From the IMG/VR virus record IMGVR_UViG_3300017917_002108, positions 1 through 64,000 of that record: DNA of 64,000 nucleotides; one strand, 5' to 3'. Source of the stretch: a virus. The notes beneath the pieces are model-generated. The model worked only from the letters and a program-made list of their open reading frames with translations. It made no database searches and was not told where the DNA came from. This document shows, piece by piece, positions 152 to 22,493 of this stretch; position 1 is the stretch's first letter; the number at the start of each line of letters is the position of its first letter. The translations under genes were made by a program, and so were the position numbers.

Positions 152-236
152 GGATGTGTAGGAAAATTGGTAACCCCAGTGGACTGTAAATCCGCCGCCT
201 CTGGCACTGCTGGTTCGACTCCAGCCGCATCCACCA
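152..236 (+). tRNA. tRNA-Tyr(GTA)
   Basis: Cloverleaf; anticodon arm gtgga-ctGTAaa-tccgc; long variable arm; TTCGA T-loop; encoded CCA. Confidence 0.95.
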
Positions 237-401
237 TTAAGAAATAGCATTGACGGGTATCGTCTATGGACGCATAGACTTATGAAGGATAGGGCCATCT
301 TACCCTTCTGAGAAAACTGTGAACAATGGCTTATGAGGAGAATCGAACTCCACTCAGAAATACGTTTCATCCCATAGGGTGTAATGTTATTTTTTAATGG
401 T
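233..401 (+). ncRNA. ~170-nt multibranch structured RNA candidate
   Basis: 19-bp closing stem (233-251 with 383-401, 2 G-U); internal hairpins gtctatg/catagac, gaagg/ccttc, tctgag/ctcaga, ggag/ctcc. Confidence 0.5.
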
Positions 402-411
402 AAAAATTTAA

Positions 412-1294
412 GGGTAGTTTATTATCCTGTTGGCGGCTTGCCGTTGACGAAGAATAAGTTGAGTGATCAACCCAAAGGAGGTAAGCCTACGCAACTCCGC
501 CAGCAATGGTTCATGTAAACAAGCCTGCTCACTACCGTGAGGTAGCGTTCACTTATAAGACGGGTGGATGTAACAGCAAAGCTGATGTTAGGGAAAGAAT
601 GCGTATCGACTGGCCCGCAAGGGAACCAGGGTGCGTGAAAAGTAACAGGTGGTGCTGACTTCCTAACAAAACCAATCAGTCAGTTGGTATGAGAAAGGGT
701 AGTGTATTGGTTCGAAGGGTCGCACCTAAGAGCTCGTATGCAATGTAAATGGTTGGTGGGACACGTTGCGAAACGTTGTTACACTGGTCGTGAAACATCA
801 CTGAGTAGCTCGCGAGGCAAAAGGTATGTGGTGAGTTGTATCGTGTATTCCAAAAGAGTATGCGGCAACTGAGGCAGCTCATCGCGGTAGGTTGTTATAG
901 ATCAATGGTAGATCATTTCTCTGTTAAAGAAACTGCTGTAGGTTCAAATCCTACTAACAAATCAAAAATGCAAAGACTGCCTCGGTTATGTGTGAAAAGC
1001 ATCTAATGCTTGACACGCAAGTGAATCAAGTCTAATGAAGCTCGCAAGGTGACATTAGTTTATACTGGAAGTTTCGTAACGGTTTAGCGACTGTGAATGG
1101 CTCGCAAGGTCAACGGGATAGATGGTGTAGAATAGCACATAACGACAAGCCTACTGCCTGGCTTTAAAAACGGCGATGCTGATAGTGGACATAGATACAG
1201 TAATGGTCTATGTGGATGTCTAGAGAAGGTTTGCTCGCAAGGCGGACTATAATGCTAGAGGCACTATTGGCTAACGTGTAATCTCAGCGTTAGC
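412..1294 (+). ncRNA. GOLLD-like giant ornate RNA
   Basis: ~880 nt with no credible ORF, inside a tRNA cluster; many GNRA (GCAA/GAAA/GTGA) hairpins; 3' hairpin gctaacg-TGTAATCTCAG-cgttagc as I recall for GOLLD; embedded tRNA. 5' boundary approximate. Confidence 0.8.
891..962 (+). tRNA. tRNA-Asn(GTT)-like element embedded in the GOLLD-like RNA (no CCA)
   Basis: Acceptor ttgtta/taacaa; D arm gatc-aatggta-gatc; anticodon arm tttct-ctGTTaa-agaaa; T arm gtagg-ttcaaat-cctac. Confidence 0.8.
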
Positions 1295-1295
1295 A

Positions 1296-1361
1296 CTATT
1301 CTAAAACACATTCGCAACCAAATGGGAGTGAAATGTCCGCGGGGAGTGTGTTTCAGAATAG
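1296..1361 (+). ncRNA. Small hairpin RNA candidate (long closing stem family)
   Basis: ctattctaaaacacattc (1296-1313) pairs with gagtgtgtttcagaatag (1344-1361). Confidence 0.45.
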
Positions 1362-1367
1362 ATTTAC

Positions 1368-1446
1368 CCGAGTGTAGGATAGTCTGGTTCATTCCGCCTG
1401 CTTTGGGAGCAGGATGTCGCAGGTTCGAATCCTGCCACTCGGACCA
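1368..1446 (+). tRNA. tRNA-Pro(TGG)
   Basis: cctgc-ttTGGga-gcagg anticodon arm; ccgagtg/cactcgg acceptor; CCA. Confidence 0.95.
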
Positions 1447-1451
1447 AAAGC

Positions 1452-1526
1452 GCCTCGTTAGTTCACCGGTAGAACGTCGCCCTTACAAGGCGAATGCAGT
1501 TGGTTCGACTCCAGCACGAGGCACCA
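1452..1526 (+). tRNA. tRNA-Val(TAC)
   Basis: tcgcc-ctTACaa-ggcga; gcctcgt/acgaggc acceptor; CCA. Confidence 0.95.
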
Positions 1527-1532
1527 GTTAAC

Positions 1533-1621
1533 GGAGAGGTCCCATAATGGTATTGGAGCAGATTGCTAATCTGTCGGTCGCTAAAAACGTCTTCGGGGTT
1601 CGAGTCCCCGTCTCTCCGCCA
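1533..1621 (+). tRNA. tRNA-Ser(GCT)
   Basis: gcaga-ttGCTaa-tctgt; long variable arm; G73; CCA. Confidence 0.95.
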
Positions 1622-1645
1622 TTTCATTTTTAAGGAAAATAAAAT

Positions 1646-1831
1646 ATGCTAAAGCCAGGTCCGAATTATAGAATGAGTAAACAGGGTAAGAGAACATTAG
1701 CCACTAATCGAATGATTGATGCACACTATCGAGGTGCTATCAAGCGTTCTATAATTCAAGCAGAGTTGGCTGCCGCTATTCAACCTAAGCGTGAAAAGAA
1801 TCGTCGAGATTCTAATACCGCAGGAGAATAA
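1646..1831 (+). CDS. Small basic hypothetical protein
   Basis: 61-aa ORF with AAGGA SD after tRNA-Ser. Confidence 0.65.
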   Translation: MLKPGPNYRMSKQGKRTLATNRMIDAHYRGAIKRSIIQAELAAAIQPKREKNRRDSNTAGE

Positions 1832-1832
1832 C

Positions 1833-2090
1833 ATGTCTGATGGTGGAAAAGGGTCTAGACCCAGACCATTCAGTGTAAGTCAAGATACATTTTCCCAAAA
1901 TTGGGACCAGATTTTTACAAAGGAAAAATCCATGCAGGTAAGAGCAGATCAGATCAAAGAAGGTGGTGTAAGTTGTGGATGCGGTCGTAGTCCTACCGGT
2001 CATTGTATTGGTTGGCACGGTTTATCAGAAGCAGCATTCCAAGCCAAACTTCAAGAATACCTTAAAGAACAAAAGACAGCTGATAAGTAA
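1833..2090 (+). CDS. Small protein with CDGSH-like (3Cys-1His) Fe-S motif
   Basis: AGGAG SD before ATG 1833; CGCGRSPTGHCIGWH resembles CxCxxSxxxPxCDGxH. Confidence 0.65.
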   Translation: MSDGGKGSRPRPFSVSQDTFSQNWDQIFTKEKSMQVRADQIKEGGVSCGCGRSPTGHCIGWHGLSEAAFQAKLQEYLKEQKTADK

Positions 2091-2096
2091 TTCGTT

Positions 2097-2172
2097 GGGG
2101 GTTTAGCTCATCTGGGAGAGCATTAGCTTTGCAAGCTAAGGGTGATCGGTTCGAGTCCGATAACCTCCACCA
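2097..2172 (+). tRNA. tRNA-Ala(TGC)
   Basis: ttagc-ttTGCaa-gctaa; G3-U70 pair; CCA. Confidence 0.95.
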
Positions 2173-2176
2173 ACAT

Positions 2177-2252
2177 GCCCTTGTAGCTCAGTTGGTAGAG
2201 CAGTGGTTTTGTAAACCAAAGGTCGGGAGTTCGAGACTCTCCGGGGGCACCA
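2177..2252 (+). tRNA. tRNA-Thr(TGT)
   Basis: Anticodon loop ttTGTaa; canonical D and T arms; CCA. Confidence 0.95.
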
Positions 2253-2269
2253 AGATTACCAAAAATGTC

Positions 2270-2297
2270 TTGACAAAGACATAAAAGAATGTATAAT
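2270..2297 (+). promoter_or_regulatory. sigma70 promoter
   Basis: TTGACA (2270-2275)-16 bp-TATAAT (2292-2297). Confidence 0.75.
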
Positions 2298-2303
2298 ATT
2301 TTT

Positions 2304-2567
2304 GTTACAGTAGAAATACTGTAACCGGTGAAGCAGAAGGTAGATGAGGGTAGACGCTTGTATGGCTTCATTGCCGTACAGACTTAATCTGGCAAAGACG
2401 CTTGAAACGTCTCCGTGCTTGGGTGATCCGATTTTATCTAATGTCATTTGCTGATCGGAAATATTCAGGTCTCTGTCGCCTGTATATTGCACGTTGTCTA
2501 GACCGACGATATCGAACAATAGGTCTTGTCAATTGTCCGGTCTATTACTTGACCTTTTGCCGACCCG
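2304..2567 (+). ncRNA. Unassigned ~260-nt structured RNA or leader of rpoZ
   Basis: 9-bp GAAA hairpin (2304-2325); closing helix 2333-2341/2552-2560 plus 2351-2355/2540-2544 enclosing five hairpins. Confidence 0.55.
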
Positions 2568-2586
2568 TCACTTATTAAGGAAGCAC

Positions 2587-2832
2587 ATGGCTAGGATTTC
2601 AGCAGAAGAAGCAGTAAAGGCGATTGGAAACAGATTTGATCTGGTATTGGTCGCTAGTCAAAGAGCCAGAGAAATTAAAAACGGATCCAGACCTAAGATC
2701 TCGGATCAAGATTCAACGCCCTGTGTAGCGGCATTGAAAGAAATTGAAGAAGGCAAATATACCTACAACGATTATTTGAAAACTGTACAACGAAAGAAAA
2801 AAGGACAAAGAGATGAATATTTCCCTACGTAA
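2587..2832 (+). CDS. rpoZ: RNA polymerase omega subunit homologue
   Basis: MARIS..AIGNRFDLVLVASQRAREI..VAALKEIEEG is the typical omega signature; TAAGGA SD. Confidence 0.9.
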   Translation: MARISAEEAVKAIGNRFDLVLVASQRAREIKNGSRPKISDQDSTPCVAALKEIEEGKYTYNDYLKTVQRKKKGQRDEYFPT

Positions 2833-3385
2833 GGCCAATGCCATCCAGAATAACATCAACGAGGCTATCCGTGGTATCAAGATCGAAACCACAGTAGAAC
2901 TCAACGAGTTCCAAGATGTGGCTGCTGAGCTGCAAAAGGCCAATGACTTGGTAATCACCAATGATGCCCGCAGACAAAAACTGTTGTTGTCTCTGTACAA
3001 CATCAGAGGTCTAGTTGGCACAGCCAATGCCGGTTGTGGTATTGATTTGAATCTAGCCAAGGCCGCGTTTATTGACAAGCGTATTGGTCAGCTAGAAGAA
3101 CTAGCCAGCGTCAAGCCTGTGACTGCACTTGATGTTATTAAGGGCAAGCTAGAGAAGATTAAGAGTCTTAAAGACGAAGCTCGTAGCAGAATCTATGGGT
3201 ACGGAGATACTGTGAGTACCACAGTGGTCAGCCAAGATCAGATCGATCAGGCCAAGTCTGAGATCCTTAATCTCAAGAAACAGAAACAAAAGCTCAACGA
3301 TGAAATTCTTGAGCTCAACATCAAAACTGAGATTCCCCTCAGTGACGAAACGGTCAAACTTCTTCAGCAAGAAGGATTGATCTAA
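2813..3385 (+). CDS. Hypothetical coiled-coil protein
   Basis: 190-aa ORF overlapping the rpoZ end; heptad-rich. Confidence 0.8.
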   Translation: MNISLRKANAIQNNINEAIRGIKIETTVELNEFQDVAAELQKANDLVITNDARRQKLLLSLYNIRGLVGTANAGCGIDLNLAKAAFIDKRIGQLEELASVKPVTALDVIKGKLEKIKSLKDEARSRIYGYGDTVSTTVVSQDQIDQAKSEILNLKKQKQKLNDEILELNIKTEIPLSDETVKLLQQEGLI

Positions 3386-3588
3386 CAGACCCCGGGGTCC
3401 CTTCCTCGTTATTAAAGGGGGTAATTGACTTCACCAAAACGTCAGGGTGCAAACGGTAACGACCCCAAGGCCTTGTCGGCGACTTGAGACACCGTGGCGG
3501 CAGAAGCAGAACTGACGACAAAAACATAAATGCTGATCGACAGGGTAGACAACTCAGTCTAGGGCGGAACAGGGAACCGTGGCTAGAC
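3386..3588 (+). ncRNA. Unassigned ~200-nt structured RNA candidate
   Basis: GC-rich non-coding stretch; 12-bp palindrome gaccccggggtc; helices ccctt/aaggg, tgac/gtca, gggt/accc, ttgtcg/cgacaa, gtctag/ctagac. Confidence 0.45.
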
Positions 3589-3674
3589 ACTTTATTAAAA
3601 CGCACTGCCGAAGTTGGTTCGGTTAGGCAAGCTGCATCCAACGAGCTATGTCCGTGAGTGCGTTTTAATAAAGT
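3589..3674 (+). ncRNA. Small hairpin RNA candidate (long closing stem family)
   Basis: Perfect 18-bp inverted repeat actttattaaaacgcact / agtgcgttttaataaagt around a 50-nt loop. Confidence 0.5.
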
Positions 3675-3678
3675 TTAT

Positions 3679-3754
3679 GGTCAGGTGGCAGAGCGACTTA
3701 TGCGCTGGATTGCAAACCCAGACTAGGTAGGTGGAAATCCTACCCTGACCTCCA
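3679..3754 (+). tRNA. tRNA-Cys(GCA), atypical T-loop
   Basis: ttGCAaa loop; U73; CCA; T-loop TGGAAAT. Confidence 0.85.
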
Positions 3755-3759
3755 ATTAT

Positions 3760-3835
3760 CGCAGAGTATGGAAGTGGTCATCCGTCCGGTCTCATAAGCC
3801 GGGAATCGCAGGTTCGAATCCTGCCTCTGCAACCA
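3760..3835 (+). tRNA. tRNA-Met(CAT), initiator-like
   Basis: ctCATaa loop; C1:A72 mismatch; CCA. Confidence 0.9.
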
Positions 3836-3840
3836 ATCAC

Positions 3841-3915
3841 CTCGCTGTAGTTCAATGGACAGAACGAATTCCTCCTAAGAATTAGATCCAGGTTCGATTC
3901 CTGGTGGCGAGGCCA
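3841..3915 (+). tRNA. tRNA-Arg(CCT)
   Basis: aattc-ctCCTaa-gaatt; CCA. Confidence 0.92.
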
Positions 3916-3933
3916 AAGCGTAAATAATTCAAT

Positions 3934-4009
3934 GCGGGTGAAGTGTTTGTGGTTACACGTCAGTCTTCCAAACTGAAATAGACGAGTTCGACTCTCGCCT
4001 CCCGCTCCA
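3934..4009 (+). tRNA. tRNA-Gly(TCC)
   Basis: tcagt-ctTCCaa-actga; U73; CCA. Confidence 0.9.
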
Positions 4010-4668: not shown

Positions 4669-4887
4669 ATGTCAAAAAACGATTTAATTGAATTAACAGG
4701 CACTATAAACGAAGTTTTACCAGGTAGCATGTTTAGGGTTAAACTAGATAACATGCCCAATGTTATAACTTGCTACACAGGCGGCAAACTCAAACAGCAT
4801 AAAATTAAAATTATATTAGGCGATCGCGTTAAAGTAGAAGTAAGTGCATATGATCTTACCAAAGGACGTGTGACTTATAGATTATAA
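4669..4887 (+). CDS. infA: Translation initiation factor IF-1
   Basis: 72 aa; [51 protein letters not shown]. Confidence 0.97.
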
Positions 4888-4894
4888 GTAAAGT

Positions 4895-5113
4895 ATGTAT
4901 GAAGTAAAATGGCAAGACACAGCGGGTAGAGGCTGTGTGGAAGAAGTAATAGATCTATCAGCAGCACTGGCATTGGCCACTGCACTAGGAATACCAGTAA
5001 CCATAAATGGAAACGGTATAGAGCTTGTAGGAACTTTTGGTTCCGCAGGCGTAGAAAATGGACGATTACCAAACGGTGATCCCTACACTTGGTACAAAAG
5101 GAGACGACCATGA
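4895..5113 (+). CDS. Hypothetical protein
   Basis: 72-aa ORF between infA and the release factor gene; ATGA overlap with the next gene. Confidence 0.75.
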   Translation: MYEVKWQDTAGRGCVEEVIDLSAALALATALGIPVTINGNGIELVGTFGSAGVENGRLPNGDPYTWYKRRRP

Positions 5114-5787
5114 AACGAGTGATTGAAATCCGTGCCGCAGAGGGCGGTGAAGATTCAAAACTATTTGTCAGCGATCTCGCGACCGCTTACCAGAAATTGG
5201 GAATGAAACTAGGTTGAACTACCCGCCTGATAGATGTACGTCTTGGCGAGTGTAGTTTACTTGTTGAGGGCGCAGATCTATCCGGCTTAGACAATGAGCC
5301 CGGAGGTCATAGAATACAGCGTGTTCCTCCCACGGAACGCAAGGGCAGAGTTCATACCAGCACCGTTACCGTCGCGGTCATAGACAGCGAGGATGCCTGG
5401 ACAGCACCAACTATACATAAGTCCGATCTAAAGATTGAATGGTATAGTGGTACTGGGGCTGGTGGACAATATCGCAACAAACATCAAAACAGTTGTCGTA
5501 TCACACACATTCCTTCAGGAATCGTAGCCAAATCAGAATGCCGTAGTCGCCAAAATAGTTTGGATTCCGCTATGGCGGAAATACAACAGCGCATTGACAG
5601 CGAAGCCAAAAGATCGTATAATAATAACATAGCCTGCAATAGAAAGCAGCAAGTTGGGTCAGGCATGCGGGGAGACAAAATCCGCACCTACAGATTCCAG
5701 GACGATTCTGTTCAAGATCATCTGACAGGCTGTAGAGCAAAATGTTCCGCAGTTTTGAAAGGCAATATAGATTTACTTTGGAGATAA
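5110..5787 (+). CDS. RF1-type class I peptide chain release factor lacking domain 1, with in-frame UGA at codon 36 (5215-5217)
   Basis: Manual translation: MKRVIEIRAAEGGEDSKLF..KLG*TTR..EPGGHRIQRVPPTERKGRVHTSTVTVAV..GTGAGGQ..RITHIPSG..RSRQNS..GSGMRGDKIRTYRF; one frame, one stop. Confidence 0.9.
5594..5622 (+). promoter_or_regulatory. sigma70 promoter inside the release factor gene
   Basis: TTGACA (5594-5599)-17-TATAAT (5617-5622). Confidence 0.75.
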
Positions 5788-5789
5788 AC

Positions 5790-6287
5790 ATGGCACCATG
5801 GATTCAGAATGTATCGCTCAGCGATGTACGTAAAGGTCATCACATCGATGCGGGCATCAATTCCATGTTGATCCAGATCGTAGATCCAGCAATGGAGTTT
5901 CCTGCACCGTCTTATCAGTTTCGAGAAGTTCATCAATTCGAGTTCTTGGATCTTGAAAAGAGCGATAATTGTATTAACGACGATTGGAAGATACAAGATG
6001 CGCAGGCCGCAGAACTTGTAAGGCTTCTACAACATGCTTTAGAGCATAAGATGAATGTGGTTGTTCATTGTGTAGCGGGCGTCTGTCGTTCGGGTGCTGT
6101 CTGCGAGATTGGAGTTATGATGGGCTTCCGTGATACTGAAGTTTTTCGTTCACCTAATCTATTAGTCAAGCACAAGATGATGAAGTGCCTGGGTTGGACC
6201 TATGATGAAAAAGAAGCTCATACGATCAATGGTGTGATTTTAGATTCCGGCCTTATTGTGCCAAAAAATTATGAAGGGGGTATTTAA
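5790..6287 (+). CDS. Cys-dependent (PTP/dual-specificity-like) phosphatase
   Basis: VVHCVAGVCRS (HCxxGxxR); GGAG SD before ATG 5790. Confidence 0.8.
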   Translation: MAPWIQNVSLSDVRKGHHIDAGINSMLIQIVDPAMEFPAPSYQFREVHQFEFLDLEKSDNCINDDWKIQDAQAAELVRLLQHALEHKMNVVVHCVAGVCRSGAVCEIGVMMGFRDTEVFRSPNLLVKHKMMKCLGWTYDEKEAHTINGVILDSGLIVPKNYEGGI

Positions 6288-6605: not shown

Positions 6606-7013
6606 ATGGAATACATTATTGAAGCCCGAAGCCAGAGGACTAAAAAGTTTATTGATATGATCTTACGATCTATGATTAAACAGCTGAAACTCAAAAACAG
6701 CAGAAAAGTCCTTTTTGTAAAAGTTAGCAGAGCCGATATTGACAATGACAATGACGGTCAGACCTGCTATATTCCGGGAGTTGATGGAATCGTTATCATA
6801 GTCAAGCCACAATCGCTTGAAAAGATGGGGATAACATTAGCTCACGAAATGGTTCATGCTAAACAAATGGCGTCGGGAAAACTCAAAACTATCGATGGTG
6901 TAAATTATTGGTGCGGCAAACGCTACACTAAAAGGACAAAGTATCTAAACAAGCCTTGGGAAATCGAGGCATTTTCAAAACAAGAACTTCTGTTTAGGAG
7001 ATCAATAGAATGA
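6606..7013 (+). CDS. HExxH zinc metallopeptidase-like protein
   Basis: LAHEMVHAKQ..PWEIEA. Confidence 0.75.
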   Translation: MEYIIEARSQRTKKFIDMILRSMIKQLKLKNSRKVLFVKVSRADIDNDNDGQTCYIPGVDGIVIIVKPQSLEKMGITLAHEMVHAKQMASGKLKTIDGVNYWCGKRYTKRTKYLNKPWEIEAFSKQELLFRRSIE

Positions 7014-7025
7014 AAGGAGGGCACT

Positions 7026-7628
7026 ATGCCTAGCGTGTTTTTAGTAAGTGATACGCACTTCGGCCATGCAGGCGTGTGTCGTTTCACTCGAGATGATGGT
7101 AGTAAGTTGAGACCGTGGGATTCGGCTGAAGAAATGGACGAAGCTATGGTCAAGGCTTGGAACGAGAGAGTTAAGCCTACTGACAAGGTGTATCACTTAG
7201 GTGATGTTGTTATTAATCGTAAGGCAATGAGCACATTAGCTCGTTTGAACGGAGACAAGGTTTTAATCCGTGGTAACCACGACATCTTTAGAGATGGCGA
7301 GTACAGACAGTACTTTAGAGAATTACGTGCATATCATGTTATGAACGGAATGATCTTAAGTCACATTCCTGTACACAGTGATAGTTTGGGTCGTTTTGGT
7401 GTTAACATTCACGGACACTTACACGCAAACCGTGTTAAGAAGGCTCGTGGAGTTGATGCTCGTACAGGAGAAATTTTGTACAGCGATGAGATCGATCCTC
7501 GTTACCATTGCGTCTGCGTAGAACAAACACCAAACTTTGCGCCTATCTTGTTTGAAGACGTTATCAAGCGTATTGAAGCAGAAGGCGGATCAGTAGGTTT
7601 TAGGAACGGTAACGGTCCTACAATGTGA
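7026..7628 (+). CDS. Calcineurin-like metallophosphoesterase
   Basis: DTHFGH, LGD, GNHD, HGHLH motifs; AGGAGG SD. Confidence 0.92.
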   Translation: MPSVFLVSDTHFGHAGVCRFTRDDGSKLRPWDSAEEMDEAMVKAWNERVKPTDKVYHLGDVVINRKAMSTLARLNGDKVLIRGNHDIFRDGEYRQYFRELRAYHVMNGMILSHIPVHSDSLGRFGVNIHGHLHANRVKKARGVDARTGEILYSDEIDPRYHCVCVEQTPNFAPILFEDVIKRIEAEGGSVGFRNGNGPTM

Positions 7629-7735: not shown

Positions 7736-9463
7736 ATGCCCTTACAAATTAAAAGAGGCCCAACAGCAGATAGAACTACCTATACGCCGGTACAAGGCGA
7801 ATTGGTGTTTGATACTGATGAAAACAAATTATATGTAGGAGACGGTACTACTGTAGGTGGTATAGCTTCTACATCGATCAGCATCGAAGATGCGCAAGAT
7901 GCGGCAGCATCTCTATTAACCAGCGGTATTCATACCGGAATTTCATTCACGTACAACGACACTGCGGCCAGAATAGACGCTGTTCTAGGCACAGATCTAG
8001 TGACTGATATCAAAGGATCTGTATTTGCAGACGACAGCACAATTTTAGTAGACAGTGTATCTGCTCAAATCAATCTAGACGGAACTGTAAAAGGCGATAT
8101 CGTACCTGATGTAGATTCTGCCTATGATCTCGGCAGTGCCTCTTTTAAATTTAGAGACCTTTATCTCAGTGGGACCAGTATATATCTGGGTTCTGCACTG
8201 ATTACAGCTTCTGGTTCAATAGTTAATTTACCTGCCGGATCAACTATCGGTGGACTGGACATAGGTTCTGGCAGCGGAGTTACACCCGGAAGTAATTACA
8301 ATATCAATATCGTAGGCGACGACAGCACAGTAATTCTAAATTCGTCAACTAAAACAATTACCGCAGCCGGTGGTTTTGTGGGCAATATAACTGGTAATCT
8401 TATCGGTAACACCACAGGCTATCACACAGGCGATGTCAAAGGATCTATATTTGCAGATGATTCGACTATTCTTGTGGATGCGGTAGGCGCGGTTATTAGA
8501 GCCGATATCGCTACCGATGAAATTAAATTAGGAACTCCTAGTTCTTATGATCTAAGAATTTACAAAACTGTTCCAGGAGAAGTCACCTTTGATGTTAGCG
8601 GTCTTTTAGATTTTAGATTAAATGCAACAAACCTAAATCTAGGATCAAATACATATTCATCTAGACTCAACATATTCAGAAGCGGTTCAGTCGGTACTAT
8701 AGCTAATTTTTATACAGCAGTCACAGGTGGCGGCACTTCAGGAAACAATTTTAGTTTTTATAGAGCTAACGGCACACTAGGCAGTCCAACTGCTATGGCC
8801 GACGGTGAAAGAATTATAGATATTGACTTTCACGGCCATACAGGATCCGGTTATTTTTCCGCAGCCAATATTCGTGCATATGTAGATGGCACGCCTTCAG
8901 CTGGTGTTGTTCCAGGTGGACTTGTATTAATGACTAGATCTGCTGGAGGATCTATGCAGAACTCGGTCACCATAGATTCTACCAATGCAACTACTCTTAG
9001 AGGAAATCTTAATGTAGATTCTGGTAACGTAAACGTTACAGTTTATGGCAATAACCAAAGCGTAAAATCTGTAAACTTTTATAGAGCAAGAGGAAACATT
9101 TCAACGCCCACAACAGCATTGGCCAACGATCACTTGTATTCGTTAAAATTCAATGCCTATGACGGTTCGGCCTATCAGCAGAGCAGTCTGATCAGAGCTG
9201 AAATTGATGGCTCATTATTAGGTGGAGGAATAGTTCCAGGCAAGTTGGTTTTAATGACAGTTGGCACAGCAGGAACTATGACCACTGCCATGCAGATTAA
9301 TAAGGATCAAGTAGTTTCTGTTAACAAAGCTCTACAACTACCGGTGTATGCAGATTCGACTGCAAGATCAGCGGGTATACCAACACCAGCTACAGGCATG
9401 GTATGTATTACTGCTTCTAGTTTTACCTGGTATGACGGTACTGTTTGGCAGACTCTAACCTAA
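7736..9463 (+). CDS. Tail fibre / receptor-binding protein
   Basis: N-terminal LQIKRG..GELVFDTDENKLYVGDG module (Mtd-N/hyaluronidase-like); YDLGSASFKFRDLYLSG; duplicated C-terminal beta module. Confidence 0.85.
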   Translation: MPLQIKRGPTADRTTYTPVQGELVFDTDENKLYVGDGTTVGGIASTSISIEDAQDAAASLLTSGIHTGISFTYNDTAARIDAVLGTDLVTDIKGSVFADDSTILVDSVSAQINLDGTVKGDIVPDVDSAYDLGSASFKFRDLYLSGTSIYLGSALITASGSIVNLPAGSTIGGLDIGSGSGVTPGSNYNINIVGDDSTVILNSSTKTITAAGGFVGNITGNLIGNTTGYHTGDVKGSIFADDSTILVDAVGAVIRADIATDEIKLGTPSSYDLRIYKTVPGEVTFDVSGLLDFRLNATNLNLGSNTYSSRLNIFRSGSVGTIANFYTAVTGGGTSGNNFSFYRANGTLGSPTAMADGERIIDIDFHGHTGSGYFSAANIRAYVDGTPSAGVVPGGLVLMTRSAGGSMQNSVTIDSTNATTLRGNLNVDSGNVNVTVYGNNQSVKSVNFYRARGNISTPTTALANDHLYSLKFNAYDGSAYQQSSLIRAEIDGSLLGGGIVPGKLVLMTVGTAGTMTTAMQINKDQVVSVNKALQLPVYADSTARSAGIPTPATGMVCITASSFTWYDGTVWQTLT

Positions 9464-22381: not shown

Positions 22382-22493
22382 GTGGTCGTGAGTGGAATAC
22401 AGGCAGACCTGCCGCCTCTCCGAAAGGAAGGCTGGTGATGGGGCGCCGTCTTAGACAAAGCCTTTGTAGGTTCGAATCCTACCGACCACACCA
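22382..22493 (+). ncRNA. tRNA-like RNA without an anticodon loop (Leu-like body)
   Basis: Acceptor gtggtcg/cgaccac, A73, CCA; T arm gtagg-ttcgaat-cctac; D region GGCAGAC; anticodon arm replaced by a GAAA-capped extended helix; 112 nt. Confidence 0.75.

Follow-up and report, generated by a model that had tools for sequence, protein, structure and literature searches.

Introduction

In the bacterial gene prfB, an early internal UGA precedes most of the coding sequence, and the full-length class-I release factor RF2 is only made when RF2 itself fails to terminate there. The +1 frameshift cassette of prfB, consisting of a Shine-Dalgarno (SD)-like element, a 3-nucleotide (nt) spacer and the sequence CUU UGA C, is an established RF2-sensing device (PMC5009743). 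Here, we analyse a short RF1-type release factor gene with an in-frame UGA at codon 36, which is encoded by a tailed double-stranded DNA (dsDNA) phage in positions 1 to 64,000 of the IMG/VR virus record IMGVR_UViG_3300017917_002108 (this whole stretch of 64,000 nt is called the window in the following). A preliminary description of the gene had been made from the letters of the window without database searches. Comparison with relatives of the gene makes it likely that it encodes a class-I factor of RF1 specificity without domain 1, which is produced via programmed UGA readthrough at codon 36.

The phage gene shares with prfB the early internal UGA in a class-I release factor gene and the expected dependence of the full-length protein on RF2 failing at this codon. 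In contrast to prfB, which shifts frame, the phage gene keeps its frame and would need readthrough; the codon in front of the UGA is GGY instead of CUU, and the candidate stimulator is a hairpin on the 3′ side instead of an SD-like element on the 5′ side. Furthermore, prfB is autoregulated, whereas the phage product is of the RF1 type and cannot read UGA, which would result in cross-regulation by another factor. The prfB cassette itself is present at the same place in homologues of the phage gene (L210, L248 and 15 IMG/VR loci).

According to a review of recoding from 2016, a design based on readthrough of an early in-frame stop is not known for RF2 or RF1 genes, and the release factor of Mimivirus is the only one cited for such recoding (PMC5009743). 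In Mimivirus and Megavirus, the internal stops of a class-I release factor gene are passed by recoding, one of them by readthrough (Jeudy et al., 2012; PMC3521657). The likeness to the phage gene lies in a virus-encoded release factor gene with recoded internal stops. The giant virus factor is of the eRF1/aRF1 type, belongs to a eukaryotic virus, combines frameshift with readthrough and has been described as autoregulatory (PMC3521657), whereas the phage factor is of the bacterial RF1 type and lacks domain 1, and its gene contains a single UGA that the product cannot read.

For the arrangement of the putative recoding signal, the closest parallels are the UGA readthrough elements of alphaviruses and plant viruses, in which a UGA is followed by a 7-9-nt spacer and a stem of about 12 or more base pairs (bp), and which are marked by compensatory substitutions and a reduced level of synonymous change (Firth et al., 2011; PMC3159437). 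These eukaryotic RNA viruses produce C-terminally extended polymerase or coat fusions; in the dsDNA phage the stop lies only 35 codons into the gene and the short product is probably a by-product. Readthrough by tRNA-Trp is known from the A1 protein of phage Q-beta.

Two further systems resemble the phage gene in its product or its genomic setting. The TGA-recoded 'Jade' phages likewise encode an RF1-type factor adjoining tRNA genes; their RF1 genes have been described as using the standard code and as lying in a code-change module together with a suppressor tRNA and a tryptophanyl-tRNA synthetase (TrpRS) (Borges et al., bioRxiv 10.1101/2021.08.26.457843). The phage studied here differs in that it is not recoded and has no suppressor tRNA, and the RF1-type gene holds its only in-frame TGA. 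PrfH (RF-H), part of the RtcB2-PrfH rescue pair, is also a class-I release factor homologue without domain 1 (PMC1586002), but its codon-reading elements are altered and it is partnered by RtcB, while the phage protein keeps the RF1 elements.

Results

An in-frame UGA is conserved at codon 36

The gene occupies one frame that is interrupted solely by the TGA at codon 36, in the context LG*T and with A as the base following the stop (Table 1). This frame, its coupling to the upstream open reading frame (ORF) by an ATGA overlap at ATG 5110, the motifs EIRAAEGG and IRTY, the PxT element (PPT, 5326-5334) and the GGQ (5461-5469) had all been recorded in the preliminary description and proved correct in every position. 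It had also been right that the gene is missed in the ORF list, where it appears only as the fragments 5089-5217 and 5560-5787. With TGA translated as Trp, the product (P0001) has 225 residues, and the other three Trp codons of the gene are TGG.

Table 1. Features of the release factor locus and its surroundings (window coordinates).
Feature	Position	Strand	Remarks
Phage tRNA array with 11 tRNAs (all of the genome's) and GOLLD RNA	152-4009	+	ARAGORN, Rfam
IF-1 (initiation factor 1) homologue	4669-4887	+	Pfam eIF-1a/IF-1, 64 bits
Upstream ORF of 72 amino acids, translationally coupled (ATGA)	4895-5113	+	Present in 65 family loci (88 have more than 1 kb upstream)
SD-like GGAG	5100-5103	+	6 nt 5′ of ATG 5110; read from the sequence
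Short RF1-type gene, domains 2-4	5110-5787	+	ATG 5110 to TAA 5785-5787; sole interruption TGA 5215-5217
Codons 1-35, start of release factor domain 2, EIRAAEGGEDSKLF	5110-5214	+	Pfam/NCBIfam matches
In-frame UGA, codon 36, putative recoding site	5215-5217	+	TGA in all clade relatives covered
7-nt spacer ACUACCC between UGA and hairpin	5218-5224	+	Synonymous sites almost frozen
Codons 37-225 and TAA: rest of domain 2, domain 3 (GGQ), domain 4	5218-5787	+
Conserved RNA hairpin, 17 interrupted bp, candidate readthrough stimulator	5225-5286	+
Dual-specificity-phosphatase-like gene	5790-6287	+	Weak Pfam DSP/PTP matches, below cut-offs

A search in IMG/VR yielded 40 full-length relatives with 60-92% amino acid identity, and TGA was found at the same codon in all sequences (41/41). 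Including 80 further loci from a metagenome scan, TGA was present in 116/116 motif-matched loci, and inspection by eye of 10 more loci also confirmed the stop. Thus, codon 36 is TGA in about 126 loci of the clade and never TGG, TAA or TAG. The same holds for all 100 distinct gene sequences (100/100), in which the preceding Gly codon alternates between GGT and GGC and other codons vary freely. In this set, synonymous differences outside the hairpin region are near saturation (proportion of synonymous differences, pS, 0.68), and the ratio of nonsynonymous to synonymous change (dN/dS) amounts to 0.10 upstream of the stop (codons 2-35) and to 0.14 downstream of it (codons 37-224). Such purifying selection indicates that the sequence is read in this frame on both sides of the stop and is constrained at the protein level.

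Judged by these comparisons, the conservation of the TGA is far beyond chance and the stop is not damage. In a single sequence, a lone in-frame stop resembles a fresh nonsense mutation, but a pseudogene, a private mutation or a sequencing error is refuted by the same TGA in all relatives examined, which stem from independent assemblies, and by saturated synonymous sites combined with low dN/dS on both sides; we regard this explanation as practically eliminated. That TAA and TAG never occur at codon 36 would be expected if a leaky, Trp-readable stop is required.

The stop has left traces in public databases. Apparently uninterrupted proteins of 222-231 residues with W at this position come from short contigs of about 1-5 kb, and all full-length 'W' copies checked in the clade (5/5, three proteins) translate only with TGA as W; these forms are artefacts of gene calling with code 4. 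On long contigs, the gene was called as shortened products of 182-189 residues (entries P0002-P0121 span both forms), which are likewise annotation artefacts of the interruption. The shortened calls begin just past the stop and could be taken as a sign of split expression, in which the 35-residue peptide is released and re-initiation yields a C-terminal protein of about 183-189 residues that acts alone or together with the peptide. We consider this very improbable: there is no conserved start codon or SD sequence past the stop, and the called starts are TTG or CTG inside conserved coding sequence. Any stop would allow re-initiation, yet TGA alone occurs. Moreover, the first 35 residues contain the conserved GG-E/D helix tip of release factor domain 2 and are strongly selected, deep relatives with TGG at this codon show a continuous protein, and the frameshift cassettes of homologues also yield one polypeptide.

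A covarying hairpin lies downstream of the UGA

The preliminary description had proposed a hairpin that starts at the stop itself (5215-5222 with 5252-5259, including an inner cgcc/ggcg). This complementarity does exist in the window, but it is unsupported across relatives: in 90 sequences only 71% of the cells pair and covariation is no better than in slid controls, and the hairpin was therefore rejected as a conserved element. A different hairpin, with a spacer of 7 nt between it and the UGA, is conserved. Its pairs are 5225-5227/5284-5286, 5229-5235/5276-5282 and 5237-5243/5268-5274, and the fold of the window sequence has a minimum free energy of -30.2 kcal/mol (z = -3.55).

Codon choice is constrained in this region. 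Synonymous variability, expressed as codon-choice entropy, is the lowest of the gene at codons 33-48 (0.4-0.5 bits compared to a mean of 1.2), pS drops to 0.39 in codons 37-60 (0.68 elsewhere), and in the spacer ACT is used in 72 of 83 Thr codons and ACC in 79 of 81. Of the hairpin cells, 92.8% are paired; shuffles reach 85.0 ± 0.5% and slid controls 25-46%. Double-sided changes were counted in 175 cells (shuffles: 59 ± 12.5, slid controls: 5-37) and are seen in 11 of the hairpin pairs. As an example, one pair joins the first positions of codon 42 (G/A, Asp/Asn) and of Leu codon 57 (C/U), with 30 GC, 25 GU and 36 AU combinations and one mismatch. In another, the third, synonymous position of Val43 lies opposite the middle position of codon 55; GC was counted 31, AU 17, UA 12, GU 3 and UG 1 times, and 28 of 92 cells are unpaired. 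In lineage L160 (59% identity), 15 of 18 pairs are retained, some through compensatory substitutions, and the loop or apical region is variable in sequence. RNAalifold found only a weak structure on a 75-nt alignment alone and an extended stem on a longer alignment.

The tested UGA readthrough stimulators of alphaviruses and several plant viruses consist of a 7-9-nt spacer followed by a long stem, and the 7-nt spacer of the phage hairpin falls into this range (PMC3159437). Taken together, spacer and hairpin speak for a readthrough signal that acts in cis, and the locus has the features expected of a programmed readthrough site as far as these can be read from sequence, namely a conserved in-frame stop, constraint on both sides and an RNA structure on the 3′ side.

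Codon 36 corresponds to a tryptophan of RF1

In RF1 of Thermotoga maritima, the counterpart of codon 36 is the Trp of a KGW motif. At 79 loci from bacterial genomes, nearly all of them ordinary RF1, this position is occupied by W (68 loci), F (six), Y (three) and M (one). The expectation that RF1 typically has Trp at the position of the stop was therefore well founded. Among the deep relatives of the gene, L153 and L158 have TGG at this position, while TGA is found at the homologous spot in the deeper short-form lineages L154, L160, L161, L162 and L168, which range from 28 to 60% GC. Other deep lineages encode Leu, Ile, Phe, Ala or His. TGA alternates only with TGG and only over deep divergence, which fits decoding as Trp.

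This alternation argues against selenocysteine, a reading in which the UGA is decoded by tRNA-Sec and SelB and the hairpin serves as a bacterial selenocysteine insertion sequence (SECIS). A conserved hairpin just 3′ of a conserved in-frame UGA is indeed the general layout of bacterial SECIS elements. On the other hand, Cys was not found at this position in any relative or bacterial RF1 (W, L, I, F, A, H, Y and M were seen); relatives have W (TGG), L, I, F, A or H instead and bacterial RF1s mostly W, F or Y. Neither tRNA-Sec nor sel genes were found in the phage, and the sequence of the hairpin's loop region varies. In addition, the wide GC range of the phages with this design points to probably many hosts, and the +1 frameshift of homologues at CUU UGA in the same place needs no selenocysteine. 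The preliminary description had already placed a SECIS-like role behind Trp insertion, and with no relative carrying Cys, selenocysteine has become a highly unlikely explanation.

A-to-I editing of the UGA to UGG by TadA was also set aside: a TACG loop motif is associated with this editing, and it is absent here.

The phage uses the standard code and has no suppressor tRNA

The complete virus record has 146,604 bp and 38.7% GC. A greedy ORF map with translation table 11 contains 157 ORFs, covers 95% of the genome and ends in TAA 91, in TGA 57 and in TAG 9 times. Reading TGA as sense lengthens the ORFs no more than reading TAG or TAA as sense, and past their TGA, the TGA-ending genes extend by a median of 6 codons to the next stop. 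With 57 of 157 ORFs ending in TGA, the genome is not recoded, in line with what had been concluded from genes near the locus; the phage is not one with code 4 (TGA = Trp). In the ORF map and the extensions of TGA-ending genes over the whole genome, no second gene split by TGA was detected. A codon-usage scan for interrupted genes was dropped, as it was too noisy, missed the release factor gene and mostly returned antisense frames.

All tRNAs of the genome lie in the array upstream of the gene (Table 1). Using ARAGORN and Rfam, we found no tRNA-Trp, no tRNA-Sec and no tRNA with a UCA anticodon in this genome; a search for the last had been proposed in the preliminary description. UCA tRNAs are also lacking in the flanks of 162 loci, a set that comprises related loci and more distant matches to release factor domains and in which tRNA genes flank 98. 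A tRNA-Trp(CCA) gene is located close to the interrupted gene in seven relatives (L005, L025, L027, L081, L112, L113 and L156); in L156 it ends 22 nt before the start of the release factor gene.

These data bear on the possibility that the UGA truly terminates and that the gene is silent in the usual host and expressed only where UGA is decoded efficiently, i.e. in a host with code 4, during co-infection with a TGA-recoding phage or with a suppressor or altered tRNA-Trp borne by phage or host. The stop would then be a switch for code or host and not a gauge of RF2. The tRNA-Trp(CCA) genes of the seven relatives are compatible with this reading, and TGA-recoded phages encoding RF1 are known (bioRxiv 10.1101/2021.08.26.457843). 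However, the genome contains neither a tRNA-Trp nor a UCA tRNA, the flanks of the related loci contain no UCA tRNA, and TGA serves as the terminator of 57 of the phage's own genes. The conservation of spacer and hairpin speaks for a signal acting in cis, and the prfB-type cassettes of homologues respond to RF2, not to suppressors. We therefore judge such a switch to be unlikely, though less so than selenocysteine or split expression.

Two other sequences in the window touch on UGA decoding. A tRNA-like sequence at 22382-22493 has a perfect acceptor stem, a T arm and CCA, and was called neither by ARAGORN nor by the Rfam tRNA model at gathering score. As a UGA suppressor it was ruled out, since it has no TCA triplet and thus no possible UCA anticodon. 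Secondly, a 135-codon ORF (6606-7013) ends in TGA-A and is followed four codons on, in the same frame, by a metallophosphoesterase gene (7026-7628); the in-frame extension past the stop amounts to 204 codons. This layout is probably a coincidence, because the esterase aligns with its family right from its first residue.

Short phage RF1-type genes use several recoding designs

For a wider view, the 'best 80' diverse short RF1-type genes from viral contigs were surveyed; the set contains redundancy and the code of the source contigs was unchecked. Recoding would be needed in 74 of the 80 genes, 59 with in-frame stops (mostly TGA) and 15 with +1 frameshift cassettes, while six are uninterrupted. 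The most frequent design is a single TGA at the Trp-equivalent codon (35 loci). A single stop about 10 codons later was found in seven loci (6 TGA, 1 TAG), a TGA about 20 codons later in two and an in-frame CTA TGA in one. Fourteen loci have two in-frame stops, the first TGA and the second TGA or TAG (e.g. L264, L278 and L297). In L156/L157 and L169, the in-frame TGA lies at other places within the first 60 codons.

The 15 frameshift cassettes, all within L258-L326, mostly follow the pattern CGGAGG-NNN-CTT-TGA; one, in L300, is the amber form CTT TAG. In two distant genes, L210 (3001-3664) with the sequence CGGGGG CAC CTT TGA C and L248 (~110-796) with GGAGG GGT CTT TGA C, the cassettes require a +1 shift near the same place, which yields a continuous protein of 220-odd residues with PPT and GGQ. 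The window gene itself does not belong to this type, as its frame stays 0 and the codon before the UGA is GGT.

Lineages of one gene family have thus reached different recoding devices that all hinge on failed UGA termination. The survey points to RF2-dependent expression, and in our opinion no other argument speaks as strongly as this diversity of devices for selection on an output that depends on RF2, rather than on one that is simply low. Dependence on RF2 had been suggested earlier for the window gene; the SD-NNN-CUU-UGA cassette at the same spot in homologues lends this idea independent support.

The product resembles RF1 without domain 1

The product with W at codon 36 matches Pfam PCRF at positions 103-194 of 194 as well as RF-1. 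In the NCBIfam prfA models (TIGR00019 / NF001859), the match begins at model position 107-115 of 347-361. With a match only from position 115 onward, domain 1 is absent. The scores of 189.4 and 191.3 bits do not reach the equivalog cut-offs of 423 and 400 bits, and the product is a prfA homologue but not an equivalog. Domain 1 is not supplied in trans by the upstream 72-amino-acid ORF, which was ruled out as it has no similarity to PCRF.

Among the NCBIfam models, RF1 is clearly preferred to RF2 (189 vs 113 bits), and the PrfH model (TIGR03072) gives 39.9 bits, below its cut-off of 166.65. An AlphaFold2 model of the product (predicted local distance difference test score, pLDDT, 82; predicted template modelling score, pTM, 0.68) takes the open shape of ribosome-bound RF1 and superposes best on this form (template modelling (TM) score 0.78-0.80), compared to ~0.74 for RF2 and 0.58 for PrfH. 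The sequence RIQRVPPTE...HTST and the GGQ are invariant across 17 diverse family members, and none of the ten neighbouring ORFs scanned encodes RtcB.

These results support a functional class-I release factor of the RF1 type that lacks domain 1. With its codon-reading elements (PxT, Gln and Thr) intact, it is more likely to be an ordinary terminator at UAA and UAG than a PrfH-like rescue factor. Domain 1 is reported to be dispensable for codon recognition and peptide release but needed for RF3 (PMC1586002).

Genomic neighbourhood and relatives

The release factor gene follows directly after the tRNA array. The GOLLD RNA of the array (828-1290; Rfam RF02032, 215.6 bits, gathering score 150) encloses a tRNA-Asn (891-962). 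An IF-1 homologue is found near the release factor gene in 39 family loci, on the same strand and either up- or downstream, and the phosphatase-like downstream neighbour is present in 93 family loci (downstream sequence exceeds 1 kb in 101). The module also includes a metallophosphoesterase, found in 61 family loci. In L153 (1-1613; 23% GC), one of the relatives with TGG, the release factor gene lies near a fusion of kinase, phosphoesterase and T4 RNA ligase (AAA_33, Metallophos, RNA_lig_T4_1), which is suggestive of a connection of short RF1 genes with modules for RNA repair.

Further downstream, a tail-fibre-like protein (7736-9463) begins with a domain of the Mtd_N family (major tropism determinant, 46 bits), which hints at a target of a diversity-generating retroelement. 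The PolB of the phage is nearest to those of cultured jumbo phages of Sinorhizobium and Agrobacterium (45-50%). A megablast of the region against a phage collection gave no match, the nearest by protein being ~40% identical, and the bacterial genome collection contained no close relative of the release factor gene, only 2-3 distant short forms in contigs of metagenome-assembled genomes.

Discussion

Based on these data, we propose the following mechanism for the interrupted gene. Initiation looks efficient, with an SD-like GGAG and ATGA coupling. For most ribosomes, translation would end at the UGA through host RF2, with a peptide of 35 residues as the product. Some would decode the UGA by near-cognate tRNA-Trp(CCA), which would restore the Trp of RF1. 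When the UGA is in the A site, the spacer would place the 17-bp hairpin at the mRNA entrance, and both probably set or raise the rate of readthrough. The full-length protein would thus be a minor product, with an output that increases as RF2 activity per ribosome drops: RF2 and tRNA-Trp compete for the UGA and the product cannot read it, so that output should rise when RF2 falls. For the same reason, there would be no direct self-shutoff.

The product is expected to terminate at UAA and UAG, which account for 100 of the 157 stops of the phage, without RF3-assisted recycling. As domain 1 is reportedly needed for RF3 (PMC1586002), a factor without it should work but recycle slowly, and slow recycling could explain why its level is held down. 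By taking over UAA and UAG, the factor may free RF2 for UGA stops, forming an indirect negative feedback loop.

Several observations weigh against programmed readthrough as the explanation or limit its reach. Gating is not obligatory for function, as judged from the relatives with TGG and the six uninterrupted genes among the 80 surveyed. The UGA-A context, named as a leaky one in the preliminary description, is present here and common but not universal and appears not to be essential: the base after the stop is A in 100 and G in 16 loci of the clade, and C in deeper lineages. The register of the hairpin is lost in the most divergent members (L038, L071 and L036, 6-10 of 18 pairs), although these fold hairpins of their own at similar distances from the UGA. 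Shared ancestry inflates the covariation counts, among them the 175 double-sided changes, and the sequences counted are also those that the structure was derived from. To our knowledge, readthrough-stimulating hairpins are established for eukaryotic viruses and not for bacteria. Finally, any benefit to the phage is conjecture.

With this in mind, a broader idea can be put forward tentatively, and we lean slightly against it at present. A release factor circuit with an early in-frame stop that is read through when termination is weak had been proposed before release factor genes were sequenced, and was later reported as unknown in nature. It may operate here in trans: the output of the short RF1 would follow the shortfall of RF2, the factor would take over UAA termination and RF2 would return to UGA, making the phage the operator of a homeostat of host termination. 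Under the same selective demand, sister lineages would have found independent solutions, namely UGA readthrough with a hairpin on the 3′ side, two in-frame stops, or a +1 frameshift like that of prfB.

A search of the literature retrieved no published description of this gated short-RF1 design, which combines two known things, programmed readthrough and recoding of release factor genes. If readthrough is confirmed, the gene would clearly exemplify programmed UGA readthrough with the help of an RNA structure in a dsDNA phage. Among bacterial-type release factor genes it would be the first example, of a design listed as not found (PMC5009743). The finding also matters for annotation: gene callers either split the gene or, if the contig is short, change to code 4, databases consequently hold truncated or false 'W' versions, and this can also mislead the prediction of the genetic code for phage contigs.

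As a natural and apparently active RF1 without domain 1, the protein offers a test of the contribution of domain 1 and RF3-dependent recycling in vivo. If the proposed mechanism is true, the UGA, the 7-nt spacer and the 62-nt hairpin would form a compact natural cassette for measuring or engineering RF2-dependent expression, and these phages would monitor and adjust the termination capacity of their hosts, beside bringing their own tRNAs and an IF-1 homologue.

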